Of a DNA stretch of 64,000 bases, positions 1 through 15,203 are shown piece after piece. The position numbers and the translations under genes are program-made. The DNA is taken from NCBI RefSeq assembly GCF_055900595.2, contig NZ_CM148325.1, one strand, 5' to 3'. Each line of letters starts with the position of its first letter. The first letter of the stretch is position 1. The notes beneath the pieces were generated by a model. That model was not told where the DNA came from. It made no database searches and saw only the letters and a list, made by a program, of their open reading frames with translations.

Positions 1-1203
1 GAATTTAACCGCCAGCTGTCGCTGACGGGGCATTATGCCGGAGTCACTGCCGGGCAGCTGTGGACGCTCAGTCGTGCTATTTCCGGGAATGGTATCACGC
101 AACATGCTGCAGCCGGTGCGCTGGCTCAGGTGGTGGGGAGTGGTGCATTTCGTGGAAACGATATCGGTATGGTGGCGAGAGCTGCCGCACAGATGGAGCG
201 ATCGGTTGGCCAGTCGGTCAGCGATACCATAAATCAGTTTAAGCGGCTGAAGGATGATCCTGTAAATGCCGCGAAGTCTCTGGACAATGAGCTGCATTTT
301 CTTACTGCCACTCAGCTTGAGCAGATACGCGTCCTTGGAGAGCAGGGGCGGTCCAGTGATGCGGCACGGATAGCCATGTCTGCACTGGCAGAGGAAACCG
401 GTCGGCGTACTGCGGATATTGATAATAACCTCAATGCGCTGGGCAGTACGCTGCAAACTTTGTCTGACTGGTGGAAGCAGTTCTGGGATGCGGCCATGAA
501 TATTGGTCGTGAAGATTCGCTGGATGCGCAGATTGCCACTTTGCAGGAGAAAGTGTCGCGGGCGAAAAGACTCCCCTGGACGGCATCATCTTCTCAGGTT
601 GAATACGATCAGCAGCGTCTTAACGATCTTCAGGAGAAAAAACGCCAGAAGGATTTGCAGGATGCAAAAGAGCAGGCAGAGCGGAATTATCAGGAGCAAC
701 AGAAACGCCGTAATGCTGAAAATGCTGCACTGAACCGGATGAATGAAACGGAAGCTGCACGACATCAGCGTGAAATTGCGCGTATTAATGCCATGCAGTA
801 CGCCGATCAGGCTGTCAGGGATGCGGCGATACAACGTGAAAATGAACGTTACGAGAAAGCCCTGGCATCCGGTAAGAAAAAAACACGCGAAACCCGTAAT
901 GATGAGGCCACCCGGTTATTGCTGCAGTACAGTCAGCAACAGGCACAGGTGGAAGGACAGATTGCTGCTGCCAGACAGTCAGCAGGCATTGCCACGGAAA
1001 GGATGACAGAAGCGCATAAACAGCTCCTGGCTCTGCAGCAGCGCATCAGCGACCTGGACGGGAAAAAACTGACGGCAGATGAAAAGAGTGTGCTGGCCCG
1101 TAAAGATGAACTGATTCAGGCACTGACGCTGCTGGATGTAAAACAGCAGGAGCTTCAGAAACAGACGGCACTCAACGAGCTGAAGAAAAAACAATTCAGC
1201 TGA
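1..1203 (+). CDS. phage tail tape measure protein (lambda gpH-like), 5' end outside window; reading frame ends at 1201-1203
   Basis: Frame 1 is open from base 1; translation is coiled-coil and Gln/Ala-rich like lambda H; gene order H-M-L-K-I-J follows. Confidence 0.8.
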   Translation, partial: EFNRQLSLTGHYAGVTAGQLWTLSRAISGNGITQHAAAGALAQVVGSGAFRGNDIGMVARAAAQMERSVGQSVSDTINQFKRLKDDPVNAAKSLDNELHFLTATQLEQIRVLGEQGRSSDAARIAMSALAEETGRRTADIDNNLNALGSTLQTLSDWWKQFWDAAMNIGREDSLDAQIATLQEKVSRAKRLPWTASSSQVEYDQQRLNDLQEKKRQKDLQDAKEQAERNYQEQQKRRNAENAALNRMNETEAARHQREIARINAMQYADQAVRDAAIQRENERYEKALASGKKKTRETRNDEATRLLLQYSQQQAQVEGQIAAARQSAGIATERMTEAHKQLLALQQRISDLDGKKLTADEKSVLARKDELIQALTLLDVKQQELQKQTALNELKKKQFS

Positions 1204-1265
1204 CCAGTCAACTGGCTGAAGAAGAGCGCGCTCAGCGTCAGCAACATGACCTGGATATCGCCACG

Positions 1266-2117
1266 GTGGGTATGGGTGATCAGCAGCGACAGCGATATCA
1301 GGTACAACTGAGTCTTCGCCAGAAATACCAGCAACAGCTGGAGCAGTTGAGGCGGGATAGTGAGCAGAAAGGGACATATAACACGGATGACTACAGAAAG
1401 GCCGAGCAGGCGCTGACGGAGAGCCTGAACCGACAACTGAATGAGAATCGCCGTTACTGGCAACAGCTTGAAGTTGTGCAGGGTAACTGGAAAAACGGAG
1501 TCCTGCGTGCATTTCAGGATTTTACCGTGGATGCAGATAATACGGCAGAAACAGCAGAACAGGTGTTCTCGTCAGCCTTCAGCAACATGGGAAATGGCCT
1601 GGCAACTTTTGTCACTACCGGCAAACTCAATTTCAAATCCTTCACCTCTTCTGTGCTGTCAGATATGGCGAAAATCCTGGCGCAGGCAACCATGATGAAA
1701 TCGATAAAAGGGATTGGCAGTGTACTGGGATTTGATCTCAGCAGCCTTTCCCTGAATGCCAATGGGGGGATTTATCAGTCTGCTGATTTGAGTCGTTACA
1801 GTGGCACGGTGGTTAACCGTCCGACGTTTTTTGCTTTTGCAAAAGGCGCGGGTGTGATGGGGGAAGCGGGACCTGAAGCCATTCTGCCATTGCGTCGTGG
1901 TGCTGACGGTAAGCTGGGGGTTGTGGCGGATATTGGGGGTTCAGGTATGGCGATGTTTTCCCCGCAGTACAACATCGAGATCAATAACGATGGCACGAAC
2001 GGGCAGATAGGTCCGGCTGCCCTGAAGGCGGTTTATGACCTCGGGAAAAAAGCGGCAGCGGACTTTATGCAACAGCAGGCCCGTGATGGTGGTCGGTTAA
2101 GTGGAGCATATCGGTAA
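1266..2117 (+). CDS. tape measure protein C-terminal portion (continuation of gpH in another frame)
   Basis: C-terminus INNDGTNGQIGPAALKAVYD...RDGG matches the lambda H C-terminus; frame is open from ~1110, overlapping the upstream segment, so one gene is split by a frameshift. Confidence 0.8.
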   Translation: MGMGDQQRQRYQVQLSLRQKYQQQLEQLRRDSEQKGTYNTDDYRKAEQALTESLNRQLNENRRYWQQLEVVQGNWKNGVLRAFQDFTVDADNTAETAEQVFSSAFSNMGNGLATFVTTGKLNFKSFTSSVLSDMAKILAQATMMKSIKGIGSVLGFDLSSLSLNANGGIYQSADLSRYSGTVVNRPTFFAFAKGAGVMGEAGPEAILPLRRGADGKLGVVADIGGSGMAMFSPQYNIEINNDGTNGQIGPAALKAVYDLGKKAAADFMQQQARDGGRLSGAYR

Positions 2118-2446
2118 TGGAGACGTTTCACTGGAAAGTGCGCCCGGATATGAATGTGGTATCAGAGCCGAAAGTGGTGACAGTGAAGCTGGGCGATGGT
2201 TATGAACAGCGTCGTGCGGCGGGACTGAATAACCAGTTGTCGACTTACAGCGTGACGATACGTGTTCGTAAATGTGAACACCCATCTTTAAAAGCCTTTC
2301 TGGAACGGCACGGTGGCGTCCGTGCATTTCAGTGGACGCCACCTTATGACTGGAAACCGATCAGGGTGGTTTGTCGTAAATGGTCGGCAAGCGTGGGGGC
2401 GCTGTGGGTAACCATAACGGCAGATTTTGAACAGGTCGTGGCATAG
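2117..2446 (+). CDS. M: phage minor tail protein M
   Basis: 109 aa, METFHWKVRPDMNVVSEP..., same length and sequence pattern as lambda gpM; start overlaps H stop. Confidence 0.9.
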   Translation: METFHWKVRPDMNVVSEPKVVTVKLGDGYEQRRAAGLNNQLSTYSVTIRVRKCEHPSLKAFLERHGGVRAFQWTPPYDWKPIRVVCRKWSASVGALWVTITADFEQVVA

Positions 2447-2455
2447 GAGGCTCTG

Positions 2456-3154
2456 ATGCAGGATATTCCACAGGAAACACATCATGAGACGACACGCCTC
2501 ACTCAGTCAGCCCAGGTGGTGCTCTGGGAAATCGATCTGACAGAGGTCGGTGGTGAACGTTATTTTTTCTGTAATGAGCAGAACGAAAAAGGTGAGCCGG
2601 TTACCTGGCAGGGGCGGCAGTATCAGGCATACCCCATTCAGGGGACGGGATTTGAACTGAACGGCAAGGGCAGTGCTGCCCGTCCGACACTGACGGTTTC
2701 TAACCTGCACGGAATGGTCACCGGGATGGCGGAAGACCTGCAGAGTCTGGTCGGCGGAACGGTGGTCAGGCGTAAGGTTTACGCCCGTTTTCTGGATGCG
2801 GTGAACTTCGTCAACGGAAACAGTGACGCCGATCCGGAGCAGGAGGTGATCAGCCGCTGGCGCATCGAGCAGTGCAGCGAACTGAGCGCGGTCAGTGCCT
2901 CTTTTGTACTGTCCACGCCGACGGAAACGGACGGTGCTGTTTTTCCGGGACGTATTATGCTGGCCAACACCTGCACCTGGACCTATCGCGGCGATGAGTG
3001 CGGTTATAGCGGTCCGGCGGTCGCGGATGAATATGATCAGCCGACGTCCGATATCACGAAGGATAAATGCAGCAAATGCCTGAGCGGCTGTAAGTTCCGC
3101 AATAACGTCGGCAACTTTGGCGGTTTTCTTTCCATTCACAAACTTTCGCAGTAA
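2456..3154 (+). CDS. L: phage minor tail protein L
   Basis: 232 aa, MQDIPQETHHETTRLTQS..., lambda gpL-like with C-terminal Cys cluster. Confidence 0.9.
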   Translation: MQDIPQETHHETTRLTQSAQVVLWEIDLTEVGGERYFFCNEQNEKGEPVTWQGRQYQAYPIQGTGFELNGKGSAARPTLTVSNLHGMVTGMAEDLQSLVGGTVVRRKVYARFLDAVNFVNGNSDADPEQEVISRWRIEQCSELSAVSASFVLSTPTETDGAVFPGRIMLANTCTWTYRGDECGYSGPAVADEYDQPTSDITKDKCSKCLSGCKFRNNVGNFGGFLSIHKLSQ

Positions 3155-3158
3155 TTCC

Positions 3159-3902
3159 ATGACAGAGACAGAATCAGCGATTCTGGCGCACGCCCGGCGA
3201 TGTGCGCCAGCGGAGTCGTGCGGCTTCGTGGTGAGAGCGCCGGAGGGGGAAAGATATTTCCCCTGCGTGAATATCTCCGGTGAGCCGGAGGCGTATTTCC
3301 GGATGTCGCCGGAGGACTGGCTGCAGGCAGAGATGCAGGGTGAGATTGTGGCACTGGTCCACAGTCACCCCGGTGGTCTGCCCTGGCTGAGTGAGGCCGA
3401 CCGGCGGCTGCAGGTGCAGAGTGATTTGCCGTGGTGGCTGGTTTGCCGGGGAGCGATTCACAAGTTCCGCTGTGTGCCACATCTTTCCGGGCGGCGCTTT
3501 GAGCACGGGGTGACGGACTGTTACACGCTGTTCCGGGATGCTTACCATCTGGCGGGGATTGAGATGCCGGATTTTCATCGCGAGGATGACTGGTGGCGTA
3601 ACGGTCAGAATCTCTATCTGGATAATCTGGAGGCCACAGGGCTGTATCAGGTGCCGTTGTCAGCGGCGCAGCCGGGCGATGTGCTGCTGTGCTGTTTTGG
3701 TTCATCGGTGCCGAATCATGCCGCCATTTACTGTGGTGACAGCGAGCTGCTGCACCATATTCCTGAACAACTGAGCAAACGAGAGAGGTACACCGACAAA
3801 TGGCAGCGACGCACACACTCCCTCTGGCGTCACCGGGCATGGCACGCATCTGCCTTTACGGGGATTTACAACGATTTGGCCGCCGCATCGACCTTCGAGT
3901 GA
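3159..3902 (+). CDS. K: phage tail tip assembly protein K (MPN/JAMM plus NlpC/P60 domains)
   Basis: HSHPGG JAMM motif and DCYTLF catalytic Cys region; lambda gpK-like. Lambda K is annotated from the internal Met (here 3303); 3' end overlaps I as in lambda. Confidence 0.85.
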   Translation: MTETESAILAHARRCAPAESCGFVVRAPEGERYFPCVNISGEPEAYFRMSPEDWLQAEMQGEIVALVHSHPGGLPWLSEADRRLQVQSDLPWWLVCRGAIHKFRCVPHLSGRRFEHGVTDCYTLFRDAYHLAGIEMPDFHREDDWWRNGQNLYLDNLEATGLYQVPLSAAQPGDVLLCCFGSSVPNHAAIYCGDSELLHHIPEQLSKRERYTDKWQRRTHSLWRHRAWHASAFTGIYNDLAAASTFE

Positions 3903-4447
3903 AAACGGGGTCCGAAGCCATCCGGGCGCTGGCCATGCAGATCCCGGCGTTTCGTCAGAAACTGAGCGACGGCTGGTACCAGGTACGCATTGCCGGGCGT
4001 GATGCCGGTGAAACCGAATTGTCTGCCCGTCTTAATGAGCCGCTGGCAAATGGTGCCGTGATCCACATCGTGCCGCGTCTGGCGGGAGCTAAAAGTGGCG
4101 GTGTGTTTCAGGTGGTGCTGGGGGCGGCGCTGATTGCGGTGGCATGGTGGAACCCTGTGGGCTGGCTGGGAGCCGCGGCTGTATCGGGTATGTATGCGGC
4201 AGGGGCCAGTATGATCCTGGGCGGAGTGGCGCAGATGCTGGCACCGAAAGCCAGGACGCCCACGGCAGCAAGTACAGATAACGGCAAACAGAACACCTAT
4301 TTCTCCTCACTGGATAACATGGTTGCCCAGGGCAATGTTCTGCCCGTTCTGTACGGTGAAATGCGCGTGGGGTCGCGGGTGGTCTCTCAGGAGATCAGCA
4401 CGGCAGACGAAGGGGATGGTGGTCAGGTTGTGGTGATTGGTCGCTGA
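3800..4447 (+). CDS. I: phage tail assembly protein I
   Basis: MAATHTLPLASPGMARICLYGDLQRFGRRIDLRV... near-identical to the lambda gpI N- and C-termini. Confidence 0.9.
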   Translation: MAATHTLPLASPGMARICLYGDLQRFGRRIDLRVKTGSEAIRALAMQIPAFRQKLSDGWYQVRIAGRDAGETELSARLNEPLANGAVIHIVPRLAGAKSGGVFQVVLGAALIAVAWWNPVGWLGAAAVSGMYAAGASMILGGVAQMLAPKARTPTAASTDNGKQNTYFSSLDNMVAQGNVLPVLYGEMRVGSRVVSQEISTADEGDGGQVVVIGR

Positions 4448-4507
4448 TGAAAAACGTTTTATGTGAAACCGCCTCCGGGCGGTTTTGTCGTTTATGGAGC
4501 GTTAGGA

Positions 4508-7500
4508 ATGGGTAAAGGCAGCAGTAAGGGGCATACTCCGCGCGAAGCGAAGGACAACCTGAAGTCCACGCAGTTGCTGAGTGTGATCGATGCCATCAGC
4601 GAAGGGCCGGTTGAAGGTCCGGTAGATGGATTAAAAAGCGTGCTGCTGAACAGTACGCCAGTGCTGGACATTGAGGGGAATACCAACATCTCCGGCGTCA
4701 CGGTGGTGTTCCGGGCCGGTGAGCAGGAGCAAACACCGCCGGAGGGATTTGAATCCTCCGGCTCCGAGACGGTGCTGGGTACGGAAGTGAAATACGACAC
4801 GCCGATCACCCGGACCATCACGTCGGCAAACATTGACCGACTGCGTTTTACCTTCGGCGTGCAGGCACTGGTGGAAACCACCTCAAAGGGGGACAGGAAT
4901 CCGTCGGAAGTCCGCCTGCTGGTTCAGATACAACGTAACGGTGGCTGGGTGACGGAAAAAGACATCACCATTAAAGGCAAAACCACCTCACAGTATCTGG
5001 CCTCGGTGGTGGTGGGTAACCTGCCGCCGCGCCCGTTCAATATCCGGATGCGCAGGATGACGCCGGACAGCACCACAGACCAACTGCAGAACAAAACGCT
5101 CTGGTCGTCATACACCGAAATCATCGATGTGAAACAGTGCTACCCGAACACGGCACTGGTTGGCGTGCAGGTGGACTCGGAGCAGTTCGGCAGCCAGCAG
5201 GTGAGCCGTAATTATCATCTTCGCGGGCGCATTCTGCAGGTGCCGTCGAACTATAACCCGCAGACGCGGCAATACAGCGGTATCTGGGACGGAACGTTAA
5301 AACCGGCATACAGCAACAACATGGCCTGGTGTCTGTGGGATATGCTGACCCACCCGCGCTACGGCATGGGGAAACGTCTTGGTGCGGCAGATGTGGATAA
5401 ATGGGCGCTGTATGTCATCGGCCAGAATTGCGACCAGTCGGTGCCGGACGGCTTTGGCGGTACGGAGCCGCGCATCACCTGTAACGCTTACCTGACCACA
5501 CAACGTAAGGCGTGGGATGTGCTCAGTGATTTCTGCTCGGCGATGCGCTGTATGCCGGTATGGAGCGGGCAGACGCTGACGTTCGTGCAGGACCGACCGT
5601 CGGATAAGGTGTGGACCTATAACCGCAGTAATGTGGTGATGCCGGATGATGGCGCGCCGTTCCGCTACAGCTTCAGCGCCCTGAAAGACCGCCATAATGC
5701 CGTTGAGGTGAACTGGATTGACCCGGATAACGGCTGGGAGACGGCAACAGAGCTTGTGGAGGACTCGCAGGCCATTGCCCGTTACGGTCGTAACGTCACG
5801 AAGATGGATGCCTTTGGCTGTACCAGCCGGGGGCAGGCACACCGCGCCGGGCTGTGGCTGATTAAAACGGAGCTGCTGGAAACGCAGACGGTGGACTTCA
5901 GCGTGGGTGCCGAAGGGCTTCGCCATGTGCCGGGCGATGTTATTGAAATCTGCGATGATGACTATGCCGGTATCAGCATCGGTGGTCGCGTGCTGGCGGT
6001 GAACAGCCAGACCCGGACGCTGACGCTCGACCGTGAAATCACGCTGCCATCCTCCGGCACCACGCTGATAAGCCTGGTTGACGGTGAGGGTAATCCGGTC
6101 AGCGTGGAGGTCCAGTCCGTCACCGACGGCGTGAAGGTGAAAGTGAGCCGTGTTCCTGACGGCGTTGCTGAATACAGCGTGTGGGGGCTGAAGTTGCCGA
6201 CGTTGCGCCAGCGCCTGTTCCGCTGCGTGAGTATCCGTGAGAACGACGACGGCACGTATGCCATCACTGCCGTGCAGCATGTACCGGAGAAAGAGGCCAT
6301 CGTGGATAACGGGGCGCACTTTGACGGTGACCAGAGCGGCACGGTGAATGGTGTCACGCCGCCAGCAGTGCAGCACCTGACCGCAGAAGTCACTGCAGAC
6401 AGCGGGGAATATCAGGTGCTGGCGCGATGGGACACACCGAAGGTGGTGAAGGGCGTGAGCTTCCTGCTTCGCCTGACCGTGGCAGCGGATGACGGCAGTG
6501 AGCGGCTGGTCAGCACGGCCCGGACGACGGAAACCACTTACCGCTTCACACAACTGGCTCTGGGGAACTACAGGCTGACAGTCCGGGCAGTAAATGCGTG
6601 GGGGCAGCAGGGCGATCCGGCGTCGGTATCGTTCCGGATTGCCGCACCGGCAGCGCCGTCGCGGATTGAGCTGACGCCGGGCTATTTTCAGATAACCGCC
6701 ACGCCGCATCTTGCGGTTTATGATCCGACGGTACAGTTTGAGGTCTGGTTCTCGGAAAAACGGATTGCTGATATCAGGCAGGTTGAAACCAGCGCGCGTT
6801 ATCTTGGTACGGCGCTGTACTGGATAGCCGCCAGTATCAATATCAAACCGGGTCGTGATTATTACTTTTATATCCGCAGTGTGAACACCGTCGGCAAATC
6901 GGCATTCGTGGAGGCTGTTGGTCGGGCGAGCGATGATGCGGAAGGTTACCTGGATTTTTTCAAAGGCCAGATAACCGAATCCCATCTCGGCAAGGAGCTG
7001 CTGGAAAAAGTCGAGCTGACGGAGGATAACGCCAGCAGACTGGAGGAGTTTTCGAAAGAGTGGAAGGACGCCAGTGATAAGTGGAATGCCATGTGGGGCG
7101 TCAAAATTGAGCAGACCAAAGACGGCAAACATTATGTCGCGGGTATTGGCCTCAGTATGGAGGATACAGAGGAAGGCAAACTGAGTCAGTTTCTGGTTGC
7201 CGCCAATCGTATCGCGTTTATTGACCCGGCAAACGGGAATGAAACGCCGATGTTTGTGGCGCAGGGCAACCAGATATTCATGAACGACGTGTTCCTGAAA
7301 CGCCTGACGGCCCCCACCATTACCAGCGGCGGTAATCCTCCGGCATTTTCCCTGACACCGGATGGGCGGCTGACGGCGAAAAATGCCGATATCAGCGGTA
7401 ACGTGAATGCGAACTCCGGGACGCTCAACAACGTCACGATTAACGAGAACTGTCGGGTTCTGGGAAAACTGTCCGCGAACCAGATTGAAGGCGATCTCGT

Positions 7501-7903
7501 TAAAACAGTGGGCAAAGCTTTCCCCCGGGACTCCCGTGCACCGGAGCGGTGGCCATCAGGGACCATTACCGTCAGGGTTTATGACGATCAGCCGTTTGAC
7601 CGGCAGATTGTTATTCCGGCGGTGGCATTCAGCGGCGCTAAACATGAGAGAGAGCATACTGATATTTACTCCTCATGCCGTCTGATAGTGCGGAAAAACG
7701 GTGCTGAAATTTATAACCGTACCGCGCTGGATAATACGCTGATTTACAGTGGCGTTATTGATATGCCTGCCGGTCACGGTCACATGACGCTGGAGTTTTC
7801 GGTGTCAGCATGGCTGGTAAATGACTGGTATCCCACAGCAAGTATCAGCGATTTGCTGGTTGTGGTGATGAAGAAAGCCACCGCAGGCATCAGTATCAGC
7901 TGA
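4508..7903 (+). CDS. J: phage tail tip host-specificity protein J
   Basis: 1131 aa starting [24 protein letters not shown], collinear with lambda gpJ throughout; the ORF track start at 4463 is an upstream extension. Confidence 0.95.
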
Positions 7904-7921
7904 ATTTTATAACCCATATAC

Positions 7922-7946
7922 GGGCGCCAGAAATGGCGCCTTTTTT
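7922..7946 (+). terminator. rho-independent terminator after J
   Basis: GGCGCC-agaaat-GGCGCC stem followed by TTTTTT. Confidence 0.7.
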
Positions 7947-7970
7947 ATTGCAGAAAAGCGAGAGGTAATT

Positions 7971-8570
7971 ATGCGTAAAGTTTGTGCAGCCATTTTGTCC
8001 GCAGCCATCTGTCTGTCCGTATCCGGTGCGCCTGCATGGGCATCTGAACATCAGTCCACGCTGAGCGCGGGGTATCTTCATGCCTCGACGAACGTTCCCG
8101 GCAGCGATGATCTTAACGGGATTAACATGAAATACCGTTATGAGTTTACGGACACACTGGGGCTGGTGACGTCATTCAGCTATGCAGGAGACAAGAATCG
8201 CCAGCTTACCCGTTACAGCAATACCCGCTGGCATGAAGATTCCGTGCGTAACCGCTGGTTCAGCGTGATGGTGGGGCCGTCTGTGCGCGTGAATGAATGG
8301 TTCAGCGCGTATGCGATGGCGGGTATGGCTTACAGCCGTGTGTCGACTTTTTCCGGGGATTATCTCCGCGTAACTGACAATAAGGGGAAAACGCACGATG
8401 TGCTGACCGGAAGTGATGACGGTCGCCACAGCAACACGTCTCTGGCGTGGGGAGCTGGCGTGCAGTTTAACCCGACCGAATCCGTGGCCATTGATATTGC
8501 TTATGAAGGCTCCGGCAGTGGTGACTGGCGCACTGACGGTTTCATCGTGGGTGTCGGTTATAAATTCTGA
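7971..8570 (+). CDS. lom: outer membrane protein Lom (Ail/Lom family, prophage-encoded)
   Basis: 199 aa with signal peptide [24 protein letters not shown] and beta-barrel pattern ending ...GVGYKF, as in lambda Lom. Confidence 0.9.
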
Positions 8571-8597
8571 TTAGCCAGGTAACACAGTGTTATGACA

Positions 8598-8622
8598 GCC
8601 CGCCGGTTCAGGCGGGCTTTTT
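8598..8622 (+). terminator. rho-independent terminator after lom
   Basis: GCCCGCC-ggttca-GGCGGGC stem followed by TTTTT. Confidence 0.75.
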
Positions 8623-9330
8623 GTGCACAGAAAACCCCCAGCTAGGCTGGGGGTTCCGGAAAGCTTTCAGCTTTGAGCCAGTTATTAAAACCCCTTTTGA
8701 TTTGTTAAAACACCTTGCGGTCTGGCAACTGCAAGTGTCAAACAAGAAATCAAAAGGGGGTCCCAATGGGGGACGAAAAGAGCTTAGCGCACACCCGCTG
8801 GAACTGTAAATATCACATAGTTTTTGCGCCGAAATACCGAAGACTGGCGTTTTACGGAGAGAAGCGTAGGGCGATAGGCAGTATTTTGAGAAAGCTGTGT
8901 GAGTGGAAAAGCGTACGGATTCTGGAAGCAGAGTGCTGCGCAGATCATATCCATATGCTTGTGGAAATCCCACCCAAAATGAGCGTATCCGGCTTTATGG
9001 GATATCTGAAAGGGAAAAGCAGTCTGATGCTTTACGAGCAGTTTGGGGATTTGAAATTCAAATACAGAAACAGGGAGTTCTGGTGCCGAGGGTACTATGT
9101 CGATACGGTGGGTAAGAACACGGCGAAGATACAGGACTACATAAAGCACCAGCTTGAAGAGGATAAAATGGGGGAGCAGTTATCGATTCCATATCCGGGC
9201 AGCCCGTTTACGGGCCGTAAGTAACGAAGTTGAATGCAAATGTCAGATCGTATGCGCCTGTTAGGGCGCGGCTGGTAACAGAGCCTTACAGGCGCATTTG
9301 AAAAACCTCCGGCTATGCCGGAGGATATTT
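8623..9330 (+). mobile_element. IS200 insertion sequence (IS200/IS605 family); ends approximate
   Basis: Contains a tnpA matching IS200 Y1 transposase; left-end hairpin CCCCCAGC-tagg-CTGGGGG upstream of tnpA; ~0.7 kb, the expected IS200 size. Confidence 0.8.
8766..9224 (+). CDS. tnpA: IS200 transposase TnpA (HUH/Y1)
   Basis: 152 aa MGDEKSLAHTRWNCKYHIVFAPKYRR...HIHMLVEIPPK, the HUH motif and IS200 TnpA signature. Confidence 0.95.
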   Translation: MGDEKSLAHTRWNCKYHIVFAPKYRRLAFYGEKRRAIGSILRKLCEWKSVRILEAECCADHIHMLVEIPPKMSVSGFMGYLKGKSSLMLYEQFGDLKFKYRNREFWCRGYYVDTVGKNTAKIQDYIKHQLEEDKMGEQLSIPYPGSPFTGRK

Positions 9331-9345
9331 ATTTGTGGAGTGGAT

Positions 9346-11751
9346 ATGGCAGCAGTAAAAATCTCAGGTGTGCTGAAAGATGGTGCGGGAAAACCAATAC
9401 AGAACTGCACTATTCAACTGAAGGCAAAGCGTAACAGCACCACGGTACTGGTGAACACGGTGGCTTCTGAAAATCCGGATGAAGCCGGACGTTACAGCAT
9501 GGATGTTGAGTATGGCCAGTACAGCGTCACCCTGCTGGTTGAAGGTTTTCCGCCTTCACATGCCGGGACCATTACCGTCTATGAAGGCTCCAGACCAGGT
9601 ACGCTGAATGATTTTCTCGGTGCCATGACGGAAGATGATGTCATGCCGGAGGCATTGCGTCGTTTTGAGGCAATGGTGGAAGAAGTGGCACGCAACGCCG
9701 AAGCCGCCTCTCAGAGCGCAGCGGCGGCAAAGAAATCCGAAACTGCAGCGGCATCATCAAAGAACGCGGCGAAAACCTCAGAAACGAATGCAGCTAATAG
9801 TGCACAGGCGGCAGCGACCTCAAAGACTGCATCGGCAAACTCCGCGACAGCAGCCAAAAAATCAGAAACCAACGCGAAAAATAGCGAGACAGCCGCAAAG
9901 ACGAGCGAAACCAACGCAAAGTCCAGCCAGACGGCAGCGAAAACCAGCGAAACGAATGCCAAAGCCAGTGAAACTGCGGCAAAAAACAGCCAGGTTGCAG
10001 CAGCCCAAAGCGAGAGCGCGGCAGCCGGTTCTGCGACTTCAGCAGCTGGATCAGCAACTGCTGCGGCTAACAGCCAGAAAGCTGCGAAGACGAGTGAAAC
10101 TAACGCAAAGTCCAGCCAGACGGCAGCGAAGACCAGCGAAACGAATGCCAAAACCAGCGAAACTGCGGCGAAAAACAGTCAGGATGCAGCAGCCCAAAGC
10201 GAGAGTGCTGCAGCTGGTTCTGCAAGCGCGGCGGCTGCTTCTGCCACTGCATCAGCTAACAGTCAAAAAGCAGCAAAAACCAGTGAAACCAACGCAAAGG
10301 CGAGCGAGACTGCGGCGGCGAACTCGGCGCAAGCATCGGCAGCAAGCCAGACAGCAGCTAAAGCAAGTGAAGACGCAGCCAGAGAGTATGCAAGCCAGGC
10401 AGCGGAGCCGTATAAACAAGTTTTGCAGCCGTTGCCCGATGTGTGGATACCGTTTAATGATTCACTGGATATGATTACGGGCTTTTCGCCATCATATAAA
10501 AAAATTGTTATTGGCGACGATGAAATAACAATGCCTGGCGACAAGATTGTAAAGTTTAAACGCGCATCGAAAGCAACTTACATTAATAAATCTGGTGTGC
10601 TGACAGAGGCTGCCATTGACGAGCCACGATTTGAACGTGATGGCCTGCTTATTGAGGGGCAAAGAACTAACCTGCTAATCAATTCAACAAATCCGACTAA
10701 ATGGAACAAGTCGTCAAATATGATCTTAAGTGCATCAGGTGTAGATGATTTCGGATTCCAGTACGCAAAATTTACATTAAAACCAGAAATGGTAGGGCAA
10801 ATTTCAGCGATTAACATAGTAACCGTTTCCGGCAGTAAAGGTTTTGATGTAACAGGCGGAGAAAAGTATGTAACCATATCATGCAGGGTGCAAAGTGGCA
10901 CTCCAAATTTAAGATGCCGATTACGATTTGAAAACTATGATGGTTCTACCTACACATTCTTAGGTGACGCTTACTTAAATACGACAGATTTATCTATTGA
11001 TAAGACGGGTGGTGCCGCTAATCGCATTACTGCAAGGGCTGTTAAAGATGAAGCAAGCAAATGGATCTTTTTTGAGGCGACAATTAAGGCACTTGATACA
11101 GAAAATATGATAGGTGGAATGGTTCAGTATGCCCCGGCAAAAGGAGTGGGCACTGGCGCGGATGATTATATTTATATTGCGACCCCTCAAGTTGAAGGTG
11201 GGGCGTGCGCTTCATCGTTTATTATAACAGGCGCATCCCCTGTAACACGCGCCAGCGATATTGTGACGGTCCCCATTTCTCTAAATTGGTGCAATCCCGC
11301 TATTAGTTCATTAGCAGAAGTTAATACCAATTGGGATGAATCGCCAAACAAAGAAGGTAGCGCACGTATTCTTAATATTTCCACTACGGGAGATACAACT
11401 GAAATTGCAGATGAAAGTTATATGTATTTGGGGTATACATCTTTGGGAGCACGCGCAATCATTACAAATGGTAAAGGCACTAAAATAGAATATAAAAGCG
11501 TTATAGAACGACCAGAGAGAAAAAGCATTATCGGCTTTAGATTCACAGAAAGTCGAGAATTGTGTGTTGTGGTTAACGGTAATATTGGTGCTAAGGTAGT
11601 TTCTCCTTATAAAAAACACAAATATACAGGAGGCTTCATTAATATTGGTGGTCAATCATCATCCGGCAACCGTCACCTATTTGGACACGTTCGAAATCTG
11701 CGTATTTGGCACAAGGCATTGACTGATGCTCAGATGGGGGAGTCAATCTAA
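9346..11751 (+). CDS. stf: side tail fiber protein (lambda Stf-like N-terminus, Ala/Ser/Thr-rich repeat shaft, divergent AT-rich C-terminal domain)
   Basis: N-terminus MAAVKISGVLKDGAGKPIQNCTIQLKA... matches lambda Stf; shaft has repeated KTSETNAK units; C-terminus ends GHVRNLRIWHKALTDAQM, resembling a LamG/concanavalin-like fold. Confidence 0.85.
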   Translation: MAAVKISGVLKDGAGKPIQNCTIQLKAKRNSTTVLVNTVASENPDEAGRYSMDVEYGQYSVTLLVEGFPPSHAGTITVYEGSRPGTLNDFLGAMTEDDVMPEALRRFEAMVEEVARNAEAASQSAAAAKKSETAAASSKNAAKTSETNAANSAQAAATSKTASANSATAAKKSETNAKNSETAAKTSETNAKSSQTAAKTSETNAKASETAAKNSQVAAAQSESAAAGSATSAAGSATAAANSQKAAKTSETNAKSSQTAAKTSETNAKTSETAAKNSQDAAAQSESAAAGSASAAAASATASANSQKAAKTSETNAKASETAAANSAQASAASQTAAKASEDAAREYASQAAEPYKQVLQPLPDVWIPFNDSLDMITGFSPSYKKIVIGDDEITMPGDKIVKFKRASKATYINKSGVLTEAAIDEPRFERDGLLIEGQRTNLLINSTNPTKWNKSSNMILSASGVDDFGFQYAKFTLKPEMVGQISAINIVTVSGSKGFDVTGGEKYVTISCRVQSGTPNLRCRLRFENYDGSTYTFLGDAYLNTTDLSIDKTGGAANRITARAVKDEASKWIFFEATIKALDTENMIGGMVQYAPAKGVGTGADDYIYIATPQVEGGACASSFIITGASPVTRASDIVTVPISLNWCNPAISSLAEVNTNWDESPNKEGSARILNISTTGDTTEIADESYMYLGYTSLGARAIITNGKGTKIEYKSVIERPERKSIIGFRFTESRELCVVVNGNIGAKVVSPYKKHKYTGGFINIGGQSSSGNRHLFGHVRNLRIWHKALTDAQMGESI
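9860..10330 (+). repeat. tandem imperfect coding repeats (~186-bp units) in the tail fiber shaft
   Basis: Protein repeats SQKAAKTSETNAKSSQTAAKTSETNAK(A/T)SETAAKNSQ...AAAQSESAAAGSA occur at least twice, nearly identical. Confidence 0.7.
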
Positions 11752-12032
11752 TGAAAGATTTAACACTCAAATTTGCCGACAGGGCCGACTTTTCGGCTTT
11801 TATGGGAAGTATTGGCTATTATAATGACGAGTCGATGCAGGATGATATTCTGATTGATGTGATAGGTAACGTGTACAAAGAAACCGGAGAGCTGACTGAA
11901 GATGGCGAACCGGTATGTGTTAAGGAAGATGGATATTTTGTAAACGTGCGCATCATTAAGGATACGCAAATATCGTCATTATTCGATGAATACGCGGTTG
12001 CTGTTGAGCATCAACTTCGTGGCTGGATGTGA
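11751..12032 (+). CDS. hypothetical protein (93 aa) immediately downstream of tail fiber; possible fiber assembly/accessory protein
   Basis: ATG overlaps the stf stop (TAATG); acidic 93-aa product; same low-GC block as the fiber C-terminus. Confidence 0.5.
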   Translation: MKDLTLKFADRADFSAFMGSIGYYNDESMQDDILIDVIGNVYKETGELTEDGEPVCVKEDGYFVNVRIIKDTQISSLFDEYAVAVEHQLRGWM

Positions 12033-12041
12033 GGTAGAGAA

Positions 12042-12746
12042 ATGGCTACATCAACAGTAATTCCGGGAGACATCACCACGCTGAAGGGAGATGTTAGTAA
12101 AGCAAAGGAAGATATTTCCTCTATTAACGGAAAAGTATCAACGCTTCAGACTGATATGGCCAGTGCAAAGCAGGATATCAGCACCAGATACACAAAAACT
12201 GAAGTTGATAATAAGCTGAAAAACAAAGTGGAAGTGAACGATCTGGAAAGTGGTCGTTATGGCGGAGATTTTTACCCGCTGACTGGCCGTGAAGCGTTTT
12301 ATTTATGGGGATTGGGCACAACTACAGCGGCGGCAAATCTTTATCTTAATCCTGACCCTGCAATTTCGTCTGTGCTGCGGTCAACATCGTCTATCCGCTA
12401 TAAACATTCAGTAGAGACGATAGATTCAGAGCACGCCGATCTCATTTTCAGGATGCGCCCTGTGTGGTACAGGTCGCAATGCGAAAATGACAGGCGTGAC
12501 TGGGGATTCTATGGATTGATTGCCGAGGAAGTTGGAGAAATTGCCCCTCAGTTTGTTCACTGGCGACCAGCCAACGAAGATGATGCACCGGAAACCATTT
12601 CCAGCAATGGCCTTGTTGCCGAAGGTGTAATGTACGAACGTCTGGTTGTTCCACTGATTCACCATATCCAGAAGCTGACTGAAAGAGTTGATGAACTTGA
12701 GTCAGAATTAAAGTTGTTATCCGTTTCCCGAAGCGATATCGGATAA
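12042..12746 (+). CDS. coiled-coil protein with C-terminal intramolecular-chaperone (peptidase S74-like) domain; tail-fiber-related
   Basis: N-terminal heptad-like coiled coil; C-terminal SSIRYKHSVETID...LIFRMRPVWYR...GFYGLIAEEV resembles the self-cleaving chaperone domain of endosialidase-type fibers. Confidence 0.6.
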   Translation: MATSTVIPGDITTLKGDVSKAKEDISSINGKVSTLQTDMASAKQDISTRYTKTEVDNKLKNKVEVNDLESGRYGGDFYPLTGREAFYLWGLGTTTAAANLYLNPDPAISSVLRSTSSIRYKHSVETIDSEHADLIFRMRPVWYRSQCENDRRDWGFYGLIAEEVGEIAPQFVHWRPANEDDAPETISSNGLVAEGVMYERLVVPLIHHIQKLTERVDELESELKLLSVSRSDIG

Positions 12747-12756
12747 AGGAGGCGTA

Positions 12757-13050
12757 ATGGATATAACACCTTTCCTTCATGCACTTTGTGCTGTGGCTGC
12801 GCAGGTACTGGTTGGTCTTTTTACCGGAAACTGGGCTTACGGGGCGATAGCTGGTTGTACGTTCTTCATTGCGCGTGAACATACCCAGGCAGAATATCGC
12901 TGGATTGAAATGTTCGGGCATGGCAAGCGTATGAATATGCCGTGGTGGGGCGGTTTTGATCCGCGTGCGTGGGATGTGGCAAGCCTGATGGATTTTGCTG
13001 TGCCGGTGGTGGCGTGTCTGCTGGTCTGGCTGTTGGTTAATCGTGGGTGA
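12757..13050 (+). CDS. small membrane protein (97 aa, two predicted TM segments), function unknown
   Basis: Hydrophobic N- and C-terminal segments; RBS AAGGAGG upstream; tightly packed after the preceding ORF. Confidence 0.5.
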   Translation: MDITPFLHALCAVAAQVLVGLFTGNWAYGAIAGCTFFIAREHTQAEYRWIEMFGHGKRMNMPWWGGFDPRAWDVASLMDFAVPVVACLLVWLLVNRG

Positions 13051-13060
13051 AAAAAGGTGA

Positions 13061-13180
13061 GCTGTATATGCAACGGAGGAAGAAACCTCGTTGCGGGAAG
13101 CCTTGAAGAAGTATCGGGTGTTGCTGAACCGTGTTGATACGTCAACTGCACAGGATATTGAATGGCCAGCACTGCCGTAG
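13061..13180 (+). pseudogene. tfa: tail fiber assembly protein (Tfa) 3' remnant
   Basis: Translates to [36 protein letters not shown], the conserved Tfa C-terminus (as in K-12 TfaQ/TfaR), with no upstream coding part. Confidence 0.75.
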
Positions 13181-13277
13181 GGTAAAACATATAAATTCTA
13201 TAATTAGATGTATCTTTCCATTTACGGCAAGGAAGGGGGCTTGGAAGACGTAAGGCATCTCACACCGAGATTATTTT

Positions 13278-13868
13278 TTATATGTCAGGTGTCTGAAGTT
13301 TTGCTTTGGCTCTTAAAATGGTTTGCCGCGAGGTTTTGAATTCCCGGGCAATGGCACTTATACTTACACCTGACTTAATCCGTTCGAATACCACCTGTTT
13401 CTGTTCTTCATTTAACACAGGTGGTCGACCAAAACGTTTCCCTGCGCCCCGGGCTCTTACTATCCCGGAATGAGTGCGTTCAAGTAAAAGGTCTCGTTCA
13501 AATTCAGCGACTGCTGAAATTACTTGCATCATCATTTTTCCTGTTGGACTGGTCAGGTCAATGCCCCCCAATGCTAAGCAATGCACTCTGATACCTGTTT
13601 CGGTCAGTTGTTCCACTGTTTTCCTGATATCCATTGCATTACAACCAAGGCGATCCAGTTTTGTCACAATCAATTGATCACCACATTTCAGGCGAGCAAG
13701 CAACCGGTTAAAACCAGGACGCTCACTGGTTGCTGCTGAGCCGCTAATGTGTTCTTCGATTATTTGCTGAGGTTTGATTTTAAAACCTGCACTTTCGATT
13801 TCCCGGCGTTGATTTTCGGTGGTCTGATCCAGCGTTGATATCCGACAGTAAGCAAAAATTCGAGACAT
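13278..13868 (-). CDS. pin: serine recombinase / DNA invertase (PinQ/PinR-like)
   Basis: 196 aa [29 protein letters not shown]... resolvase/invertase fold with catalytic Ser and C-terminal HTH; position next to tfa and ydfK matches K-12 pinQ. Confidence 0.9.
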
Positions 13869-14184
13869 AGTGAGACTCTATACGAAATTGGTGTTCATAT
13901 CATAATGCATCTCAGAAAATAATTTTGATTATTTTTGTGCATGTTTGTATGTACACGTTCGAAAATAAACGAATGCGTATGCAACCCCGTAATTTTGGTG
14001 AGACCCAAAATCGATTTTGTGAAAAATGGCTTTAACTCGGTTTGTTTTTCGAGTTCCGGGCGGACTCAAGGAAGAAGAATAGTGTTGCGTGTTATTTTAA
14101 CCAGATTTCAAGTTGTTTGGTCGTGGAAAAGTGGAGCAAAATGTTGTTAAAGTGGAAAAATGATAAAAAAGTAAGTTTATTATA

Positions 14185-14418
14185 TTACATTTTACCATTT
14201 AAATTTTGGTTGTCTTTAAGAACTGATATCGCTGTTTGTAATAATTCTTTGTTATCCAGCCATGATTTTTTCTTTATGTTTCCTTCAATGTAATCAAGCA
14301 ATGTTCTGGTATTGATAGGTCTTCCCTGTTTTGCTACTTCCACTACAGCATCCCCTAGGATAATTCTGACTTCAGGAAGCTGCGCAGGGAACCACTTTAG
14401 GGTGTCTTTTGATTTCAT
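14185..14418 (-). CDS. ydfK: YdfK/YnaE family prophage protein (cold-shock-induced, DUF1737-like)
   Basis: MKSKDTLKWFPAQLPEVRIILGDAVVEVAKQGRPINTRTLLDYIEGNIKKKSWLDNKELL... matches K-12 YdfK; RBS AAGGA upstream of this start, so the longer ORF-track start at 14451 is rejected. Confidence 0.8.
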   Translation of the reverse strand: MKSKDTLKWFPAQLPEVRIILGDAVVEVAKQGRPINTRTLLDYIEGNIKKKSWLDNKELLQTAISVLKDNQNLNGKM

Positions 14419-15203
14419 GAATATATTCCTTAAAATATTATTGATTTTCATTGCGATATTGTATGTCTGATTCAGGATATGTTGACTTATACATCGGTTT
14501 TGTCTGGGTTATTGGATATGCCAATCCCTAATTTTATTAGAGCATGACTAAAAATGCTGAATATGATAAGGAGCGAAGTGATTATCAGTATGCTGTTCAT
14601 ATAGCCTCGAATTATTAATGTGTTATATATGATATAGTTGACAATTTTTATCCTGGGTGTTCTTAAAGTTCGTAGATAAACATTGTCGTTTCAGGTATAC
14701 AGGAATGCTAACAGATGGCGGCAAAAATCAGGCGGTTTATGGCGCAAGCTGAAGTGGCAACTGCAAACTATCTTATGCAGAGACTCTACACGGATTGGGT
14801 TTAAAAGTATACATAGATAACAGTTTTTATCTGAAGAAGAAAAATATCAAGGTGATATAGCCTATATGCCTTTGATGCGGAGGAATGAATGTGATGGGAG
14901 TGATGTATCTGAATAGTTGAAAAACCGCAGACACGCCTTATGCAAGAACGTGCTGCGGTTGGCTGGTAAATTTTTCGATAGTGCGAGTATTGAATGATTT
15001 CCAGCCGTTATTGATTTTACGCGTAACTCCATGAAAAAACTACTTATCTGTTGAGGAGTTTTTTTGGGGCATATATGGGACAGAAATAGGCCCCAGATAG
15101 ACACTGAGATCGAACTTAGGATGCTTTTTAAAAAATGCAACTATCTGAAAAAACCTAGAAAACGCCAAGGAAACCACAGGATGGGAAAAAACACCTGTGA
15201 ATC

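Follow-up and report, generated by a model that had tools for sequence, protein, structure and literature searches.

A 189-nt tandem duplication, probably old and occasionally lost, in the predicted coiled-coil shaft of a lambda Stf-type side tail fibre

The side tail fibre gene considered here lies in a window of 64,000 nucleotides, meaning the whole stretch of DNA that was analysed, and it raises the question whether the repetitive appearance of its shaft reflects a true tandem repeat at the DNA level and, if so, how old the repeat is and whether it makes the length of the fibre variable. A sequence-only reading had proposed near-identical tandem repeats of about 186 bp in the fibre shaft at 9860-10330, with a capacity for length variation and unreliable short-read assembly across the region. 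The evidence assembled below points, with high probability, to an old in-frame tandem duplication of 189 nt, or 9 heptads, in the Stf-type coiled-coil shaft of a lambdoid E. coli prophage, with rare losses of a unit through unequal exchange or slippage.

The gene occupies 9346-11751 on the plus strand and codes for 801 amino acids; its open reading frame and PF08400 N-terminus place it among the lambda-Stf-type side tail fibre genes. Its correct start codon is the ATG at 9346 (MAAVKISG..., MAAVKISGVLKDG...), and the fibre N-terminus is identical to that of the annotated tail protein of phage IdasGreatGrand, while the TTG at 9298 given in the list of open reading frames is wrong. A profile search recovered PF08400 ('Prophage tail fibre N-terminal') at E 5.5e-67, with 224 bits against a cut-off of 26.6. 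Attachment of the fibre to the tail is the role of the N-terminal collar domain (9352-9630, plus strand, aa 3-95). This domain aligns with a 94-residue chain named 'Tail fiber protein' in PDB 9E7M/9MGH at E 8.4e-49. These entries represent the tail tip complex of Ur-lambda with the collar domain of its side tail fibre (Ur-lambda cryo-EM paper, PMC12617516), and the PF08400 and 9E7M matches together mark the collar as homologous to gpStf residues 1-91. Towards the other end of the protein, a C-terminal 'phage head spike fiber' domain (10648-11253, plus strand, aa 435-636) was assigned to the NCBIfam family NF048003, GTA_spike_fiber, at E 1.8e-16 and 61 bits against a cut-off of 36. It is presumed to be the receptor-binding part, and it lies outside the repeat.

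The position of the gene is also that of a lambdoid late operon. On its 5' side lies a complete J gene (4463-7903), followed by Ail/Lom (7971-8570), and this order of J, lom and fibre is common to lambda, IdasGreatGrand and E. coli Ch1. An IS200 element (8623-9333) sits between lom and the fibre gene in this window. The complete genome closest to the fibre locus is that of E. coli Ch1 (99.7% identical), in which the locus adjoins pinQ, ydfK, ynfT and a truncated ydfJ, neighbours that therefore indicate a lambdoid prophage at the Qin site. No family match to a Tfa assembly chaperone was found among the open reading frames downstream of the fibre gene. An invertible fibre segment under the control of the downstream serine recombinase was considered and dropped, since the search for its inverted repeats returned just weak pairs of 16-23 nt at 73-88% identity.

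Between the collar and the C-terminal half stretches the shaft, some 35 heptads of the form S-x-x-A-A-x-x without interruption (9658-10401, plus strand, aa ~105-352), predicted to be alpha-helical. Serine occupies one core position in 32 of the 35 heptads and alanine the position four residues on in 31, and the dominant periods along the shaft are 7.0 and 3.5. The composition is rich in Ala, Ser, Thr, Lys and Glu, and Tandem Repeats Finder (TRF) detects nested sub-periodicities of 21 and 42 nt; the shaft is thus a hierarchy in which heptads of 7 aa (21 nt) combine into double heptads of 14 aa (42 nt). An AlphaFold2 single-sequence model of the monomer places helix at residues 99-227 and 235-356 with pLDDT of ~70-89, whereas confidence is low outside the helix (mean pLDDT of the model, 64.8). 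The break between the two helices, at 228-234, coincides with the Gly-containing tail of the first repeat copy. It is probably a fold-back artefact of the model, because full-length predictions for Ur-lambda show a similar fold-back for which the tomograms of the authors give no support (PMC12617516). Helicity and heptad register are both supported, and with the alignment to the lambda shaft they fit a long proximal shaft of alpha-helical coiled coil after a short linker. In Ur-lambda, gpStf residues 102-393 form a trimeric proximal coiled coil (PMC12617516), and by analogy the present shaft would be trimeric as well; a homotrimeric fibre present in four copies per virion may likewise be taken over from Ur-lambda (PMC12617516). 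The claim that the repeat lies in a fibre shaft is therefore borne out by the PF08400 match, the 9E7M collar, the position after J and lom, and the identity to lambda orf-401 described below.

Several searches converged on a direct repeat in this part of the gene. TRF reported a tandem array at 9883-10317 with a period of 189, 2.3 copies and 83% matches, and a second repeat search returned two copies of 189 nt at 83%. BLAST of the gene against the window aligned 9880-10128 with 10069-10317 at 83.5%, and in a scan of all offsets 189 alone stood out, its top 120-nt window reaching 92.5%. Copy A extends over 9886-10074 (plus strand, aa 181-243; 63 aa, 9 heptads) and copy B over 10075-10263 (plus strand, aa 244-306). 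They are followed by a weaker and more diverged partial copy C (10264-~10316, plus strand, aa 307-323), whose identity is 73% with the first part of B and 70% with that of A. A direct repeat is thus present where one had been proposed, and the peptides quoted for it occur in the translation, yet two details had to be corrected: the period is 189 nt (63 codons, 9 heptads) instead of about 186, and the copies are not near-identical. A and B agree at 160 of 189 positions (84.7%); they reach 92% over the best 126 nt, and their longest stretch free of mismatches measures 29 nt. The agreement is concentrated in a core at 9913-9980 of copy A (plus strand; partner in B, 10102-10169) that contains the 29-nt run and is identical at 65 of 68 positions, compared with 21 of 27 and 74 of 94 in its flanks. 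Clustering of this degree was reached in 233 of 20,000 shuffles that preserved codon position, which hints at past local gene conversion.

A repetitive protein sequence may by itself produce a degree of likeness in the DNA, and two controls bear on this. Other in-register offsets (multiples of 21 nt) in the same shaft, scored over 189 nt, gave a mean identity of 49% and a maximum of 61%. Codons re-drawn for both protein sequences from the codon usage of the shaft, in 2000 draws, gave an expected 68.4 ± 2.8%, and no draw went beyond 76%. At 84.7%, the identity of A and B lies above either control, and the two copies therefore share descent at the DNA level; amino-acid similarity in the place of nucleotide identity, which the sequence-only reading had named as grounds for giving up the repeat, is not what was found. 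The view that there is no true DNA repeat, and that low-complexity, codon-biased heptads have converged at the level of protein or composition, can appeal to the Ala/Ser/Thr/Lys/Glu richness of the whole shaft and to its 21- and 42-nt sub-periodicities, but it is refuted by an identity at offset 189 that stands far above the maximum of 61% for the other in-register offsets and the 68 ± 3% that the protein alone would lead one to expect. Nor is the repeat an assembly artefact, since units A and B are also present in isolated phages and in complete genomes numbering in the hundreds.

Two diverged direct repeats within a phage fibre gene might also recall the template and variable repeats of a diversity-generating retroelement, or another form of hypermutation targeted to a receptor-binding protein; this we regard as next to impossible, since 8 of the differences involve adenine in copy A, 6 involve it in copy B and 15 of the 29 involve no adenine at all, 21 of the 29 affect the third base of a codon, most of them silently, and the repeats belong to the structural shaft and not to the C-terminal binding domain. 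The retroelement pair was rejected on this mutation spectrum, in which the mismatches are not confined to adenine, and no reverse transcriptase was found in the neighbouring open reading frames that were scanned.

The same differences speak to the age of the duplication. Between A and B, 17 codon differences are synonymous and 8 non-synonymous, and the Nei-Gojobori estimates are 0.72 for dS and 0.058 for dN, a ratio of 0.08. Judged from these substitutions, the duplication is old and both copies are held by purifying selection at the protein level. A comparison of four two-unit alleles (the window, IAI39, UTI89 and FDAARGOS_1283) gives the same impression: the A copies are 98.9-100% alike and the B copies 93.7-99.5%, while A against B always falls at 84-85%. 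Across these four alleles 22 differences between the units are fixed, and A groups with A and B with B. Such orthology across strains implies that the duplication is older than the divergence of these alleles and that A and B, taken as a whole, are not undergoing homogenisation.

Natural alleles with a single unit do exist. The shaft of phage IdasGreatGrand lacks exactly 63 aa and is otherwise ~97% identical, and the identical loss of 189 nt, leaving one unit, is found in E. coli AVS0655, CB209 and MSB1_4I. At the fixed sites the single unit of these three strains carries the A state at the 6 sites on the left and the B state at the 16 on the right (AAAAAA|BBBBBBBBBBBBBBBB). The unit of IdasGreatGrand shows the same switch from A to B, with one site in neither state and one A/B interleave nearby. 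In all four one-unit alleles the switch is bracketed by 9912 and 9981 and falls inside the high-identity core, and the 189-nt deletion can slide by 29 nt. A chimera of this kind, A on the left and B on the right, bears the mark of unequal homologous exchange or slippage in a two-unit parent, and the proposal that the repeat allows length variation is upheld by these alleles, each of which lacks exactly one 189-nt unit. The chimeric pattern also suggests the direction of the change, from two units to one by deletion. The one-unit alleles form no clade: among 10 mosaic sequences compared flank by flank, the nearest relative of a one-unit allele is a two-unit allele, twice with 0 differences. The loss may be recurrent, or it may have had a single origin and been spread by recombination.

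The opposite polarity has to be weighed at this point, namely that the one-unit shaft is ancestral, that a duplication, or an unequal exchange involving diverged alleles, turned it into the two-unit form, and that the present one-unit alleles never were duplicated. The shaft of lambda, which is without a long DNA-level tandem repeat, speaks for this order of events, and from it one may conclude that the duplication is lineage-specific and once arose from a one-unit state. For the present-day one-unit alleles, however, this account is highly improbable. A lineage that never duplicated would be expected to show A and B states in random mixture, whereas these alleles are A at 6 of 6 sites on the left and B at 16 of 16 on the right, and the sequences nearest to them in the flanks, or identical there, belong to two-unit alleles. 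Deletion from an old two-unit shaft remains the preferred reading.

The distribution of the alleles shows how far the copy number varies. The best 120 protein clusters comprise 110 with two units and 10 with one; a cluster with three is absent. At least 80% of the segment 9600-10480 is held by 967 of 5426 complete E. coli genomes, and in an even sample of the matches all 12 that cover the full query measure 881 nt. When an artificial query of three units was run on the complete E. coli genomes, the top 30 matches likewise all spanned 881 nt; such a query joins pieces that reuse the same bases of a record, and two-unit loci also reach 100% coverage with it, so that the lack of three-unit alleles rests on the protein census and on the spans of the complete-genome matches. 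In the comparison across strains that had been proposed as a check, alleles of one and of two units do exist, but the locus is not very variable and the two-unit form dominates.

These observations bear on a stronger form of the length-variation claim, in which near-identical repeats would form a hypervariable switch of fibre length, much like a contingency locus, and would regularly collapse in short-read assemblies. The occurrence of one-unit alleles in one phage and several genomes, and the interleaving of one- and two-unit alleles in the flank comparisons, which is compatible with recurrence, lend it something. It is nevertheless unlikely, for the units are not near-identical as those of a VNTR or contingency locus would be (84.7%, and at most 29 nt in a row without a mismatch), the copy number does not vary widely (one or two units in the sample census), and the orthologous A and B units with their 22 fixed differences give no sign of ongoing homogenisation or expansion. 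As to assembly, no k-mer of at least 31 nt from 9860-10330 recurs anywhere in the window, and over 100 draft-assembly proteins marked 'partial' span both units and stop further on, at aa 412-690. These endpoints lie in the C-terminal half, which is mosaically common to co-resident prophages; genomes with any match have a median of 2 matching places and a maximum of 13. The warning that short-read assemblies are unreliable at the repeat is not supported, given that k-mers of this length are not repeated and draft proteins cross both units.

Smaller changes of length were found as well, and those in complete genomes again amount to whole heptads. A shaft form shorter by 21 nt appears in 7 complete-genome records, with an intact coding sequence in strain 203740, and a form shorter by 84 nt, in EFF60, is bordered by the direct repeat AACAGCCAG of 9 nt, the gene being fragmented in that record. 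Proteins from draft assemblies also include indels that are not multiples of 7 aa (-4, -12, -30 and -41). These are given less weight here: either the conservation of whole heptads is a tendency and not a rule, or they are assembly errors. Recurrent whole-heptad indels (-21, -84 and -189 nt), generated through microhomology or the core, could be taken to mean that shaft length is an adaptive, tunable trait, selected to match the reach of the fibre to the thickness of O-antigen or capsule in association with particular C-terminal modules, with the 68-nt core kept, for example by gene conversion, as a handle for recombination. We consider it unlikely that this is so.

In the preferred reading, that of an old duplication with rare loss, the sequence of events would be as follows. 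One unit is exactly 9 heptads, and because it is a whole number of them, its gain or loss would keep the register of the Ser/Ala core and alter the length of the shaft alone. With the textbook rise of 0.1485 nm per residue, one unit would correspond to ~9.4 nm of a shaft of ~36 nm (63 × 0.1485 nm). Purifying selection at the protein level would retain both copies while they diverge mostly at synonymous sites. The 68-nt core with its exact match of 29 nt would permit occasional unequal homologous exchange or replication slippage, either of which could drop one unit and give rise to the natural one-unit alleles. Such a mechanism of recombination is conjectural, as is any influence on adsorption.

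Length polymorphism in fibre shafts made of structural repeats is a well-known, ordinary and expected feature, and no new mechanism is called for. The gain from the present analysis lies mostly in annotation and engineering, in that it supplies the true start of the gene and the exact anatomy of a repeat region that can be assembled at k of at least 31. It also provides a clean natural case of deletion by unequal exchange within a coiled-coil fibre. Stf shafts in nature can do without 9, 4 or 1 of their heptads, which suggests that the shaft of chimeric lambda-Stf delivery particles could be shortened or lengthened in whole heptads.

Among known systems, the closest include the fibres of phages such as Escherichia phages 2G7b, Tritos and HannyBb (two units) and IdasGreatGrand (one), together with those of E. 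coli prophages, in which the shaft recurs at 92-98% DNA identity along with units A and B. Allelic fibres of E. coli prophages and phages carry either one unit or two, and they diverge further through smaller in-frame indels and through the receptor-binding modules at their C-termini; the breakpoints of the mosaic among them fall at query positions ~604, 894, 962, 1163, 1293 and 1329. In more distant fibres, such as the adenovirus fibre shaft and the long tail fibre of the T-even phages, the number of shaft repeats likewise sets the length and varies between relatives, yet their shafts have a beta structure (triple beta-spiral or beta-helix), while the one described here is an alpha-helical coiled coil. 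A literature search returned no prior description of this particular repeat, and the Ur-lambda structure paper (PMC12617516) alone was relevant to it.

With the Stf of lambda and Ur-lambda the present fibre shares the collar domain and the position of the gene after J and lom. Its likeness to lambda orf-401, the N-terminal part of Stf, amounts to 61% identity over aa 3-273 and extends into the shaft, where both have Ser/Ala heptads of the KTSETNA type. The differences concern the rest of the molecule. The lambda shaft is without a long DNA-level tandem duplication and measures 292 aa, against ~248 aa here, and the distal part of lambda Stf is gp37-like and requires Tfa, whereas the C-terminus of the present fibre consists of the NF048003 domain and not of a gp37-like tip with its Tfa. 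Such a swap of the distal module is compatible with membership in the family defined by the PF08400 N-terminus, in which the combination of gp37 tip and Tfa is not family-wide.

The differences between the two 189-nt tandem units of the fibre shaft, copy A (9886-10074) and copy B (10075-10263), are not evenly spread along the repeat. The middle 68 nt (9913-9980 in copy A versus 10102-10169 in copy B) are 96% identical while the flanks reach 78-79%, a degree of clustering that was matched by only 233 of 20,000 shuffles. This pattern in the nucleotide sequence suggests that local gene conversion has taken place between the copies in the past. The chromosome of E. coli CB209 (NZ_CM144249.1) holds a one-unit and a two-unit allele in separate prophages (1328788-1329479 and 1526285-1527165), thus leaving room for inter-prophage recombination. 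The majority of the database homologues of window 9346-10560 (protein clusters P0001-P0120) are "partial" proteins from draft assemblies, and since these end at residues 412-690, contigs break within the fibre gene's mosaic C-terminal half, not in the tandem repeat.

Upstream of the fibre gene, an IS200-type element of ~711 nt (8623-9333) has inserted downstream of lom and ahead of the fibre start codon. It points in the direction of the late operon, encodes a Y1 transposase (8715-9224, PF01797) and has no target duplication. Both phage IdasGreatGrand, whose fibre has the one-unit shaft, and E. coli Ch1, the closest complete genome to this locus, are devoid of the element, and their lom-stf gap is 64 nt. 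One terminator-like hairpin (8597-8618) is native, being present in the phage as well, and another lies at 9306-9324. The insertion may exert a polar effect on expression of the fibre. The fibre gene (801 aa) and J (1146 aa) are themselves intact ORFs in the window, unlike in E. coli Ch1, where the annotation gives J, the C40 peptidase and fibre genes (530-5272 and 6004-8007 of the locus) as pseudogenes, either frameshifted or incomplete.

Downstream, a separate ORF of 234 aa (12042-12746, plus strand), annotated in RefSeq as a "tail fiber domain-containing protein", carries a Peptidase_S74 "chaperone of endosialidase" domain (E = 4.7e-6), and the small ORFs on either side of it (11751-12032 and 12757-13050) gave no family match. 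A serine recombinase follows on the minus strand (13278-13868), annotated as pinQ in the near-identical Ch1 locus; a search for inverted repeats bounding an invertible fibre segment returned no convincing pair in window 9000-14500. In Ch1, pinQ is succeeded by ydfK, ynfT and a truncated ydfJ, an order which assigns the prophage to the Qin/ydfJ site.

Two long alternative-frame ORFs cross the repeat, one of 279 aa on the plus strand (9635-10474) and one of 146 aa on the minus strand (9711-10151). Neither is a gene; both arise as side effects of the codon-restricted heptad array. The same artefact has been annotated elsewhere, as orf206b in lambda and as a minus-strand "hypothetical protein" in E. 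coli EFF60.
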